From an uncultured Gemmatimonadales bacterium (GTDB taxonomy: Bacteria > Gemmatimonadota > Gemmatimonadetes > Longimicrobiales > RSA9), in NCBI GenBank assembly GCA_963798085.1, contig CAWCRS010000007.1, forward strand, positions 1,184,001 to 1,248,000: 64,000 bases of DNA, read 5' to 3'. The notes below the pieces were generated by a model. That model was given only the letters and a program-made list of their open reading frames with translations. It was not told the DNA's origin and ran no database searches. The position numbers and the translations under genes are program-made. Shown one piece after another: positions 16,787 to 34,017 of this stretch (the stretch's first letter is position 1; every line of letters starts with the position of its first letter).

Positions 16787-17902
16787 TCAGACCGGAAGTC
16801 CGGCCGGCACCGCGGCATCATCGGGATGCCAGGTGCGGCTCAGCTCTTCGGGATGGTTGCGGAACCAGGCAGCGACCATGAGGATCTCGCTCGCCGCCGT
16901 GGCATCGATGCCGTCCCGGCCGCGCGGCGCGGCGCGCAGCAGCATCGCCGCGCGCGCGCGCAGCTGCTGCATCTCCTGGTCGTCGCGGGGCGCCGGCAGT
17001 TCTGCCAGCACGAGGCCGTGGCGCAGAACGTAGATCCGCTCCTGGTCTGCCCCGGCGACTGTGTACACGAAAGTCAGCGCCTCGATCGTGCTGCGCAGCG
17101 CCACGAGTTCCTCACGCAGCTCCTCCAGCCGGTGGATGCGATCACGCAGCGTGGCGGCGTACTCGAAGTGCGTCCGCGACGACGCCGCTTCCATGCGCTC
17201 GCGCAGGCGCTGCAGCGGCGCATCGGCTTCGCCCTGCAGGAAGCGCAGCGTGAGCTCGGCCCGTGCCCGGTATTCGTGCCGGGCACAGCGACCGGCGCAG
17301 GGTGCCATGCAGCGGCCCAGGTCGCCGCGCAGACAGAGCGGCGCCTTCGCTTCCATGGCGAAGAATTCCAGCTGGTCGGTGAACCGTAACGGTGTGTTAG
17401 AAGCGCAGTCGCGCAGCTCCAGCACATCCGCGATCTCACGCACTGCTGCACGCACCCGCTCCGGTCCGGCGAACGGCCCGAAGTAGCGCGCGCCGTCGGC
17501 CACCACGCGCGGCACGGCCTGCAGCCGCGCCGCAGACTCGCGCGTGAGCCGGATGAAGCAGAAGCTGCGGTCCCGCTTGTGCACCACGTTGTACGGCGGG
17601 CGCCAGCGCTTGATGCTCTGCATCTCCAGCAGCAGCGCAGCAAACTCGCCGGGCACGTACTCCCACTCAATGCGGTGTGTGTGCCGCAGCAGCTCCTCAC
17701 CCTTGGCGCCTCGACGCTCGCGGAAATAGCCGAGCAGCCGCGTGCGCACGCGGATGGATTTGCCCACGTAGAGCACCCGCTCGCCCGGCCCGATCATGCG
17801 GTAGACGCCCGGTCGGTTTTCGGCCAATGCACGCACCTGCGCACGCAGCGCCTCGGCGGGCACCGGGTGGCTGATCGCGGGTGTGGTGGCGAGCGCCGGC
17901 AT
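16787..17902 (-). CDS. GIY-YIG nuclease with Cys-rich and UVR domains (UvrC N-terminal half / Cho-like)
   Basis: PGVYRM...LYVGKS, ALLLE...PPYN, LRDC...CLRGDLGRCMAPC, FEYAATLRDRI; no RNase H-like or HhH domains. Confidence 0.85.
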   Translation of the reverse strand: MPALATTPAISHPVPAEALRAQVRALAENRPGVYRMIGPGERVLYVGKSIRVRTRLLGYFRERRGAKGEELLRHTHRIEWEYVPGEFAALLLEMQSIKRWRPPYNVVHKRDRSFCFIRLTRESAARLQAVPRVVADGARYFGPFAGPERVRAAVREIADVLELRDCASNTPLRFTDQLEFFAMEAKAPLCLRGDLGRCMAPCAGRCARHEYRARAELTLRFLQGEADAPLQRLRERMEAASSRTHFEYAATLRDRIHRLEELREELVALRSTIEALTFVYTVAGADQERIYVLRHGLVLAELPAPRDDQEMQQLRARAAMLLRAAPRGRDGIDATAASEILMVAAWFRNHPEELSRTWHPDDAAVPAGLPV

Positions 17903-17933: not shown

Positions 17934-17950
17934 CCGAAGATCTGCCGAAG
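17934..17950. promoter_or_regulatory. Direct repeat CCGAAG-N5-CCGAAG (candidate SOS operator) upstream of Cho-like gene
   Basis: CCGAAGatctgCCGAAG overlaps spacer and -10 of minus-strand TTGACG(17965-17960)-N17-GATCTT; same repeat at recA. Confidence 0.6.
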
Positions 17951-17990
17951 CCTCCCCCGCGTCAAGACGGCTGCGGCCGGGACCCGAGAT

Positions 17991-18815
17991 TCAGCGCTGA
18001 CAGGTGGGGCAGTAGAAGGCAGCGCGGTTGCTGCGCACGACGCGGCGGATGGGCGTGCCGCAGTTGAGGCAGGGTTCGTGCTCGCGGTCGTAGACGCGCA
18101 GGTGGAACTGGAAGCTGCCGGCGCGGCCTTCGCCGTCGCGATAGTCACTCACGGTAGTGCCGCGAGCGGTCACGGCTTCGGCGAGGACGTCCTGGACGGC
18201 GGCGTGCAGGGCGGAAGTCTCAGCGCGCCGCAGGGTGCGGGTACGTCGCGTGGGCCGGATGCCGGCGCGGTGCAGCGCCTCGCTCGCGTAGATGTTGCCC
18301 ACGCCTGCGACGCGGCGCTGGTCCAGCAGCCAGTTGCGGATGGGTGTGATGGAACCACGGGTCAGCGCGTGCAGCCGCTCCGGCGTGAATTCCGGCGACA
18401 GCGGCTCGACGCCGAGCTGGGCGGAGCGTTCCTGCCATTCACTGTGGTCGCGCAGATCCAGTCGGCCGAAGCGCCGGGCATCGTCGTAGAAGATGGCGCG
18501 GCCATCGGCCAGGTCGAGACGAGCCGCTACATGTGTCAGCTCGCGCGACAGTGCGGGCGGGCCCACCTGCACGTGCCCGGTCATGCCCAGGCTGATGACC
18601 AGACGCCAACCGCCCTCGAGCTCGAGGACCACGGCTTTGGCGCGGCGGGTGACCGCCAGGATGCGTTTGCCACGCAGCACGCGTCCGAGCCGGACCGCTG
18701 TGAGGTTGCGCGCCAGGATGTCCGGCCGGATGACCTTCACGCCGCGCACGGTGGCGCCGGCCACGGTGCGCTGCAGGTCGCGGACGATGGTCTCAGCTTC
18801 GGGCAGCTCGGGCAT
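17991..18815 (-). CDS. mutM: Formamidopyrimidine-DNA glycosylase
   Basis: MPELPEAE N-terminus, RRAK, LGMTG, DARRFG, GVGNIYASE, C-terminal CxxC...CxxC zinc finger. Confidence 0.96.
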   Translation of the reverse strand: MPELPEAETIVRDLQRTVAGATVRGVKVIRPDILARNLTAVRLGRVLRGKRILAVTRRAKAVVLELEGGWRLVISLGMTGHVQVGPPALSRELTHVAARLDLADGRAIFYDDARRFGRLDLRDHSEWQERSAQLGVEPLSPEFTPERLHALTRGSITPIRNWLLDQRRVAGVGNIYASEALHRAGIRPTRRTRTLRRAETSALHAAVQDVLAEAVTARGTTVSDYRDGEGRAGSFQFHLRVYDREHEPCLNCGTPIRRVVRSNRAAFYCPTCQR

Positions 18816-31775: not shown

Positions 31776-32803
31776 AGCAGGTCATCGATCTGCGCAGCGA
31801 CACGGTCACGCGACCCACAGCCGCCATGCGTGAAGCCATCGCGCGCGCGGAAGTCGGCGACGACACACTGGGTGACGATCCCACGACGGCCGAGCTGGAA
31901 CGCCGCATTGCCAGCATTCTGGGCAAGGAAGCGGCCGTGTTCTTTCCCAGCGGCATCATGGCCAACGAAGCCGCGCTCTGGGTGCTCGCGCCGCGCGGCA
32001 GCGAGATCATCGTCGAAGCAAACTCGCACTTCATGGACTGGGAAGTGGGCGCGCCCGCGGCGTTCAGCGGCGTGCAGCTGCGGCCCGTCGCCGGAAACGG
32101 CGGACTGCTGGATGGCGACCGGGTCGAGGCGGCGATCCGCATGCCGCACCCGCTGCGCATCCGCACATCCGTGATCTGCCTGGAGAACACGCACAACGCC
32201 GCGGGTGGACGCATTCTGCCGCTGGAAGCAATGCGCGGGATCCGTGCGGTGGCCGATCGGCATGGGCTGCCCATTCACCTCGATGGCGCCCGCCTGTGGA
32301 ACGCGGCGGCGGCCACGGGCACGAGCGAAGCCGAATTCGCCGCACTCGCGGATACCGTCATGGTCACGCTGTCGAAGGGGCTGGGCTGTCCGGTCGGATC
32401 CGTGCTCACGGGGACCAGCCCGCTCATGGTGGAAGCGCGACGGGCGCGCCGCCGCTTCGGGGGCGGACTCCGGCAGGCAGGCCTGCTGGCGGCGGCTGGA
32501 CTCTACGCGCTCGAGCATCATCGCGGCCGGCTGGCGCAGGATCACGCGCGTGCCCGCCGGCTGGCGCAGCTGACGGGCGAGGTGCCCGGACTCGCGACCA
32601 TTCCGCCCGAAACGAACATCGTGATGATGGAGATCCAGCGGCCGGATCTGGATTCCCCTGCGCTGATCGCCCGTCTGGCCGAAGCGGGCCTGCTGGTCAG
32701 CGAGTTCACACGCAAACGCTTCCGCGCGGTCACTCACCTCGATGTGGACGACGACGCGATCGAACGCGCCGGCGCAATCCTCCGTTCCGTTCTGGGCAAC
32801 TGA
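31772..32803 (+). CDS. ltaE: Low-specificity L-threonine aldolase
   Basis: IDLRSDTVT, VGDD, ENTHN, HLDGARLWNA, LSKGLG. Confidence 0.92.
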   Translation: MKQVIDLRSDTVTRPTAAMREAIARAEVGDDTLGDDPTTAELERRIASILGKEAAVFFPSGIMANEAALWVLAPRGSEIIVEANSHFMDWEVGAPAAFSGVQLRPVAGNGGLLDGDRVEAAIRMPHPLRIRTSVICLENTHNAAGGRILPLEAMRGIRAVADRHGLPIHLDGARLWNAAAATGTSEAEFAALADTVMVTLSKGLGCPVGSVLTGTSPLMVEARRARRRFGGGLRQAGLLAAAGLYALEHHRGRLAQDHARARRLAQLTGEVPGLATIPPETNIVMMEIQRPDLDSPALIARLAEAGLLVSEFTRKRFRAVTHLDVDDDAIERAGAILRSVLGN

Positions 32804-32883
32804 AGCCTCGCCCGCCCGACCCGCCTGCCCATGGCGGTGCCCCGGTGTGCTGCGCAGTTTTCGACGCAGCGGGCAGAAGGGCG

Positions 32884-32912
32884 TTGCCCGAAGAATAACC
32901 GAAGGGTATATT
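32884..32912 (+). promoter_or_regulatory. recA sigma-70-type promoter containing direct repeat CCGAAG-N5-CCGAAG (32888-32904)
   Basis: TTGCCC(32884)-N17-TATATT(32907); CCGAAGaataaCCGAAG overlaps -35 and spacer. Confidence 0.7.
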
Positions 32913-32958
32913 TCCGCCGGAAATCCCGCGGGACGAACCCCTCTCCCCAGGTGAAGAC

Positions 32959-34017
<1,059 letters not shown>

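Follow-up and report, generated by a model that had tools for sequence, protein, structure and literature searches.

What reads the direct repeat that lies across the recA promoter of this Gemmatimonadota genome, and how far does its influence reach? An earlier note on the stretch of DNA analysed here (64,000 nucleotides, hereafter the window; G000:C7:1184001-1248000 of a 6.23-Mb assembly, with G000 denoting the source genome) had reported the repeat before two genes, recA and a nuclease gene, and had taken it for a lineage-specific operator of the SOS repressor LexA. Comparison across related genomes makes it very likely that the core of this repeat, TTCGG-N6-TTCGG, is the operator (SOS box) of LexA in the class Gemmatimonadetes.

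The repeat at recA and at a nuclease gene

Both copies are where the earlier note had placed them, before recA and before the nuclease gene and in opposite orientation relative to the two: the window sequence holds CCGAAGAATAACCGAAG at 32888-32904 and CCGAAGATCTGCCGAAG at 17934-17950. The note had seen no further copy in the window, and the exact 17-mer pattern indeed occurs only twice in the whole 6,231,226-base genome, both times within the window. With one mismatch allowed, the window contains 3 matches, where shuffles average 0.35 (3/100 shuffles reach 3). At other spacings the hexamer pair occurs 0-11 times genome-wide, so that the bare count of the period-11 pair is not unusual; what is unusual is its placement on the promoters of repair genes, not its copy number.

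At recA, the operator (32888..32903, minus strand; CCGAA-GAATAA-CCGAA on the plus strand) scores 24.5 bits and is the third-best site genome-wide. It overlaps the -35 hexamer and fills the spacer of a predicted sigma-70-type promoter, TTGCCC-N17-TATATT (32884..32912, plus strand), which is a consensus match only, at 9/12 positions, and the single promoter-like site that a promoter scanner found in 32780-32980, just as the note had drawn it. The downstream gene (32959..34017, plus strand) encodes a RecA of 352 aa (Pfam RecA 459.7 bits, plus RecA_C). Five of 29 relatives (L088, L089, L090, L092, L102) share the TTGCCCGAA-N6-CCGAA layout seen at recA here.

The second operator (TTCGG-CAGATC-TTCGG, 17934..17949, minus strand, 21.5 bits) lies over a predicted -10 hexamer in the 88-bp gap between mutM/fpg, the upstream neighbour (17991..18815, minus strand), and the gene for a GIY-YIG + UVR nuclease of 371 aa that resembles the N-terminal half of UvrC (16787..17902, minus strand). 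That the repeat overlaps the nuclease-gene promoter, as the note had it, holds in part: it covers the -10 of a possible promoter that was read by eye (TTGACG-N17-GATCTT, 17937..17965, minus strand), but this candidate agrees at 8/12 positions and fell below the threshold of the promoter scanner, which left it unreported.

The name Cho-like, which the note had given this nuclease, is apt for its layout only: it is an N-terminal UvrC half that lacks the C-terminal one, in a genome that has a full uvrC as well (a separate 618-aa frame at G000:C7:1625719). Its GIY-YIG domain aligns to the N-terminal domain in UvrC structures and scores 21.9 bits, just under Pfam's 22.6, but the protein falls far short of the NCBIfam Cho family (86.5 bits, cut-off 367), and its longest match, likewise below cut-off, is with DEDD-exonuclease/GIY-YIG proteins (PRK07883), in their C-terminal part. 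E. coli Cho is, similarly, a stand-alone N-terminal half in a genome that also has full uvrC, and cho of E. coli is under SOS control, as we predict for the nuclease here; unlike Cho, the present protein carries a UVR motif and scores under the Cho cut-off.

The site at lexA and the predicted regulon

Among the tests of its proposal, the earlier note had named three that sequence comparison can decide, namely presence of the motif on lexA and other repair promoters, conservation at orthologous recA promoters and rarity at unrelated sites. There is a single canonical lexA in the genome (202 aa; TIGR00498 212 bits, cut-off 111; G000:C7:1102246-1102854, 80 kb outside the window), and its promoter carries two tandem copies of the site, at G000:C7:1102903-1102918 and 1102929-1102944, which read CCGAA-gaggaa-CCGAA and CCGAA-agtgaa-CCGAA. 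Box 1 stands behind TTGCRY and takes up the -35/-10 spacer, and box 2 lies just after the -10. Two copies on lexA itself are the usual LexA pattern. LexA proteins cleave themselves at an Ala-Gly dipeptide with the help of a catalytic Ser and Lys, and Ala87-Gly88, Ser122 and Lys160 are present in the protein here and align with solved LexAs. We compared the 80 closest lexA loci of the genome collection (77 labelled Gemmatimonadota or one of its orders, 2 'uncultured bacterium' and 1 Limnocylindria, which would place the window in Longimicrobiales): 78 have two exact TTCGG-N6-TTCGG sites no more than 200 bases from the start, and of the remaining two, one has a single copy within 200 bases and the other no upstream DNA. 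The exact box also stands at 27/28 further Longimicrobiales lexA loci (within -250/+40), and in other Gemmatimonadetes families two boxes stand at 10/10 lexA promoters; 89/90 genomes across Gemmatimonadota have a LexA match. Among the other named bacteria compared, 0/18 lexA promoters contain the box.

Judging from the aligned sites, the conserved unit is TTCGG-N6-TTCGG (CCGAA-N6-CCGAA), 16 bases long, a direct repeat with an 11-bp period whose spacer measures 6 in 79/80 lexA loci. The sixth base, the G of the CCGAAG half-site that the note had proposed, varies across 173 non-redundant sites, and the fifth spacer base is T in 137/173. The base before TTC is free. This removes CTTC-N7-CTTC, which the note had offered as the consensus and placed one base per half-site from the alphaproteobacterial box (CTTC..CTTC in 32/173 sites); the alphaproteobacterial GTTC-N7-GTTC is out as well (GTTC..GTTC in 8/173).

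What would such a repressor control? A matrix built from 63 lexA and 21 recA sites, all from other genomes, was run over the whole genome, including 4881 upstream windows (4885 genes, called with a simple codon model). Its top seven matches genome-wide lie at lexA (27.0 and 20.7 bits), dnaE2 (26.9), recA (24.5), the nuclease gene (21.5), an imuA-like gene (21.4) and gyrA (20.0; box at G000:C3:530957-530972), followed by an addB-like gene at 17.8 bits. The motif is thus rare outside repair promoters: 8/4881 genes reach 17.5 bits, seven of them regulon genes and one divergent from lexA. Half-site matrices gave the same picture for strong pairs, which are intergenic in 5/5 cases at period 11 against 5/31 at six other periods. 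In one orientation or the other, boxes overlap the core promoters of lexA, recA, dnaE2, an imuA-like operon, gyrA and the nuclease gene (consensus matches only, and a weak one at the nuclease gene), and at lexA (box 1), dnaE2, the imuA-like gene and recA they fill the -35/-10 spacer. The proposed targets fared unevenly: lexA and the imuA-like gene carry the box, but uvrA (3 loci), uvrB, uvrC, recN, ssb (2), ruvA and dinB were without a site in the matrix scan (best <=0.7 bits). The region upstream of ku reaches 12.9 bits, a level met by ~20/4881 genes, and is not counted as a member. Together, this suggests a small regulon centred on recombination and error-prone synthesis, predicted to comprise lexA, recA, the mutasome, gyrA and, variably, the Cho-like nuclease and addAB, without excision repair.

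The mutasome labels differ in firmness. dnaE2 is identified by PRK05672 above cut-off, and the imuA-like and imuB-like proteins have no Pfam or NCBIfam match; their labels rest on closeness to dnaE2, which lies ~3.7 kb from the imuB-like gene and has its own box, on a weak match to DNA polymerase IV (E 0.31) and on an overlap with RecA matches, likewise weak, in relatives. The imuB-like gene (G000:C7:1891630-1893016, L177) is split into two overlapping frames of 221 and 250 aa, and two uvrA-like genes are split too; these may be sequencing frameshifts of the assembly. A further CCGAA-N6-CCGAA at G000:C3:934173-934189 (L180, 14.7 bits) stands upstream of a 196-aa ORF without a family match, amid fragments of an apparent type I restriction-modification locus.

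Conservation was scored in 30 Longimicrobiales genomes, with the exact box sought within -250/+40 of gene starts; excluded were G000's own loci, a frameshifted lexA locus (L146), gyrA paralogues and four gyrA loci that lack upstream DNA, imuA genes present as split pieces, seven loci of uvrC, and nine of the nuclease that had no scorable mutM. Exact boxes precede the imuA-like gene in 14/15 relatives, gyrA in 10/23 (L206-L232, always in the CCGAA orientation) and recA in 10/29, the last rising to 22/29 when one mismatch is allowed (the first half then often reads TTCGC or TTCGT) and leaving 7/29 recA promoters without a box; the relatives being kin, these counts are not independent of one another. 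Conservation at orthologous recA promoters, in other words, is real and partial. As controls, rplY has 0/27 exact boxes (1 with one mismatch), and no box was found upstream of mutM in the 13 relatives scored. The note's claim of a box common to recA and the nuclease gene is true of this genome, but extends to a minority of nuclease orthologues (3/22 exact, 8/22 allowing one mismatch). Across the orthologues the nuclease gene often starts close behind mutM, and SOS control of the nuclease therefore looks optional. Further afield, 4/4 recA promoters of family f4 have one box, and in other classes of Gemmatimonadota recA was without the site in 5/5 genomes; the recA of G033, the one genome without a LexA match, has no box, and neither has recA in 4 LexA-bearing genomes of those classes.

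Metagenomes extend this picture. A search for the box set within a promoter frame yielded at least 120 loci, at least 70 of which lie upstream of lexA, imuA-like, imuB-like or dnaE2 genes; because the lexA promoter had served as the model for the search pattern, the lexA share is partly built in. Among the matches listed, 56 belong to lexA, 11 to imuA-like, 2 to imuB-like and 1 to dnaE2 genes, with 4 other matches, 38 without a match to genes of the source genome and 8 that were too short. Two unlabelled genes recur downstream of the box (L309, L321, L329, L364; L295, L333, L356), which we take to encode a Rad52/Rad22-type annealing protein and a radical-SAM protein, and which are likely further regulon members, absent or unmatched in the source genome. 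Viral contigs gave 72 matches, 70 of them without a match to source-genome genes and 2 upstream of low-GC lexA genes. Counts of a loose pattern in five genomes did not separate from a reversed control in 3/5.

LexA and other candidate binders of the site

Presence at lexA, conservation at recA and rarity elsewhere support the note's central proposal of a direct-repeat SOS operator with an 11-bp period, and the LexA protein itself provides a further line of argument. In other Gemmatimonadota classes (L406-L415), TTCGC-N6-TTCG[C/T] occupies the same spacer position in 8/10 lexA promoters, and helix 3 of LexA has Lys (TVHKH) there, as opposed to Glu (TVHEH) in Gemmatimonadetes. Over 126 non-redundant loci, the TTCGG pair stands at 114/116 Glu-type and 0/10 Lys-type lexA loci, the latter having the TTCG[C/T] pair at 8/10; the last base of the half-site is G in 445 and C in 1 for the Glu type, and C in 23 and T in 3 for the Lys type. 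By this co-variation, Glu44 would read the outer C of CCGAA, the site becoming GCGAA where Lys takes its place; both contacts, Glu to C and Lys to G, are of an ordinary kind in base readout. Glu44 aligns with E. coli LexA Glu45, and position 45 is named as DNA-contacting in the accessible part of PMC13416735. That the helix-3 residue tracks the last base of the half-site points to LexA as the binder; the co-variation is suggestive and not proof, because it may be a single evolutionary event among related genomes.

In keeping with the known LexA cycle, a LexA dimer would sit over the core promoter, reading half-sites that are one helical turn apart, and would block RNA polymerase. Once DNA is damaged, the RecA filament would induce LexA to cleave itself, which would release the target genes, and the two boxes on lexA would give autoregulation. 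To our knowledge, there is no solved structure of a LexA dimer on a direct repeat. The natural pairing of Glu/Lys with TTCGG/TTCGC offers a one-residue test of how such a repeat is read.

Could another repressor occupy the site in place of canonical LexA? The best candidate is LexA2, encoded between gltX/tRNA and tadA, whose LexA-type DNA-binding domain is well conserved in 21/21 loci examined. We nevertheless regard this as improbable: the box is missing upstream of lexA2 at all 21 loci (best 4.3 bits), a search with the LexA2 sequence as query found no LexA2 in 4/4 f4 genomes that have an exact recA box, and 41/42 f4 genomes have a single LexA match. Moreover, it is the residue of canonical LexA that the last base of the site follows, and LexA2 falls outside the direct-repeat LexA group in trees.

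The lexA2 locus takes two forms. In the source genome, the tRNA adenosine deaminase TadA carries a LexA-type DNA-binding domain as an in-frame fusion (G000:C7:1436756-1437484; L002:1501-2229, outside the window), an arrangement also present in G001 of the same genus (L185) and possibly, given a domain-only match, in G010 as a third case. The two genes are separate in 19 other Longimicrobiales loci, where one for a LexA-like protein of about 190-240 aa, its peptidase part often degenerate, stands before tadA and as a rule behind gltX and a tRNA.

As for how the site acts, the exact fit of the box in the -35/-10 spacer at lexA box 1, dnaE2, the imuA-like gene and recA would also suit a promoter element or the site of an activator, that is, an alternative sigma factor or a WYL/PafBC-type damage activator, and the lack of a box at several classical SOS genes here points the same way. 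Even so, we hold such a role to be more improbable still than binding by LexA2, as promoters with the box keep ordinary TTGCnn and TAnnnT hexamers, and the double copy on lexA follows the established habit of LexA operators. The site occurs in both orientations and its position varies, box 2 of lexA, for instance, lying downstream of the -10; it therefore fits a repressor and not a promoter element. Finally, chance co-occurrence of two repeats in a G+C-rich genome, which would agree with the absence of any genome-wide over-representation at period 11 relative to other periods and with the 3/10 CCGAA-N6-CCGAA matches that lie inside genes, is ruled out for practical purposes by conservation at the orthologous lexA, imuA-like, recA and gyrA loci with free spacer bases, by absence at rplY and mutM, and by a genome ranking that puts lexA, dnaE2, recA, the nuclease, the imuA-like gene and gyrA on top.

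Possible kinships of the box and of LexA

How does LexA come to read a head-to-tail site in this phylum? In a tree of 53 rows (LG+G4), the LexAs of Gemmatimonadota and Patescibacteria and those with GTTC-N7-GTTC boxes formed one side of a branch with 100/98 support. The direct-repeat grouping received 98/97 from 32 rows (LG+C20), 89/78 when the long-branched Rubrobacter was added (40 rows) and 100/98 without Rubrobacter and Methylobacter (38 rows); Desulfosarcina and redundant rows were omitted from the smaller trees, and the trees do not include Acidobacteria, Balneolaeota, Chloroflexota, Cyanobacteria, Thermotogota or Verrucomicrobia. Two alternatives of vertical descent were borderline in AU tests, with p 0.070 for Patescibacteria with Gram-positives and p 0.049 for alpha with gamma. 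The LexAs of Gemmatimonadota and of Patescibacteria are each monophyletic and neither group is nested in the other, and therefore no donor can be named. It is possible, if somewhat doubtful, that one LexA lineage, ancestral to the LexAs with 11-bp direct repeats in Gemmatimonadota, Patescibacteria and Alphaproteobacteria, switched once from a palindromic to a head-to-tail reading and then spread between phyla, with one helix-3 residue (Glu or Lys) setting the outer base (CCGAA/GCGAA). If true, this single origin would stand against the published view, as given in the accessible part of PMC7739468, that direct-repeat LexA motifs have several independent origins. Irrespective of its history, the box can serve directly to probe the DNA-damage regulon in a soil phylum that is abundant and little cultured.

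Is the motif new and lineage-specific, as the note had supposed? Probably not, because the same sequence marks Patescibacteria lexA promoters. TTCGG-N6-TTCGG stands in the -35/-10 spacer of lexA on two low-GC contigs, L311 and L288, both of which were picked out by the box pattern itself. The L311 LexA is identical to NCT54625.1 (Ca. Falkowbacteria), and the relatives of the L288 LexA are Magasanikbacteria and the Patescibacteria group, one being labelled Margulisbacteria. The exact box was also found among metagenome matches upstream of low-GC uvrB-, polA- and Fic-like genes. A Patescibacteria LexA motif (Sanchez-Osuna, Barbe and Erill 2017, Environ Microbiol 19:3465; PMID 28618189) is among the direct-repeat motifs listed in the accessible part of PMC7739468. 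The Gemmatimonadota box is thus probably this 2017 motif in another phylum, as we infer from the promoters, the literature searched holding no quotation of the Patescibacteria consensus. For Gemmatimonadota, no SOS box was found in the literature searched, the scope of which stopped short of subscription journals and theses, nor by a term search of the accessible parts of PMC7739468, PMC8565304 (including a supplementary file) and PMC9578287.

Among known systems similar to this one are the Patescibacteria-type LexAs: they share the helix-3 signature T[VI]HEH (127/133 of the proteins compared), although they belong to a different phylum and have only 40-47% identity to the LexA here. The uvrB of the source genome is without the box.

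The Alphaproteobacteria offer another comparison. GTTC-N7-GTTC, a box also reported for Acidobacterium capsulatum, stands in the lexA promoters of 4/4 alphaproteobacterial records that we fetched. It is given as the alphaproteobacterial LexA box in the accessible parts of PMC8565304 and PMC9578287. It resembles the present site in being a direct repeat with an 11-bp period and a TTC core, and differs in that TTCGG is invariant here and the preceding base free; likewise, the two LexAs are alike in the aromatic-acidic start of helix 2 (SFDEM/SFEEM in Alphaproteobacteria, SFEEI here) and unlike in helix 3 (SGIHRLI as opposed to ATVHEHL). A gammaproteobacterial lexA with GTTC-N7-GTTC in its promoter lies divergent from umuD on a plasmid of Methylobacter sp. 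YRD-M1 (L524, NZ_CP091426.1), and its product forms a long branch near the alphaproteobacterial LexA.

The Balneolaeota motif, TTACACATATTTTWTACATA in the accessible part of PMC7739468, is a direct repeat that was reached by the same comparative route and heads a regulon around lexA, recA and translesion polymerases, but its half-site sequence is unrelated. The Gram-positive (Cheo) box, CGAACN4GTTCG in the accessible part of PMC9578287, is by contrast a palindrome and not a direct repeat, read by a LexA in which the x of TVHxH is Gly, Ala or Ser instead of Glu; what it has in common with the site described here is the CGAA core of the half-site and the TVHxH helix 3.
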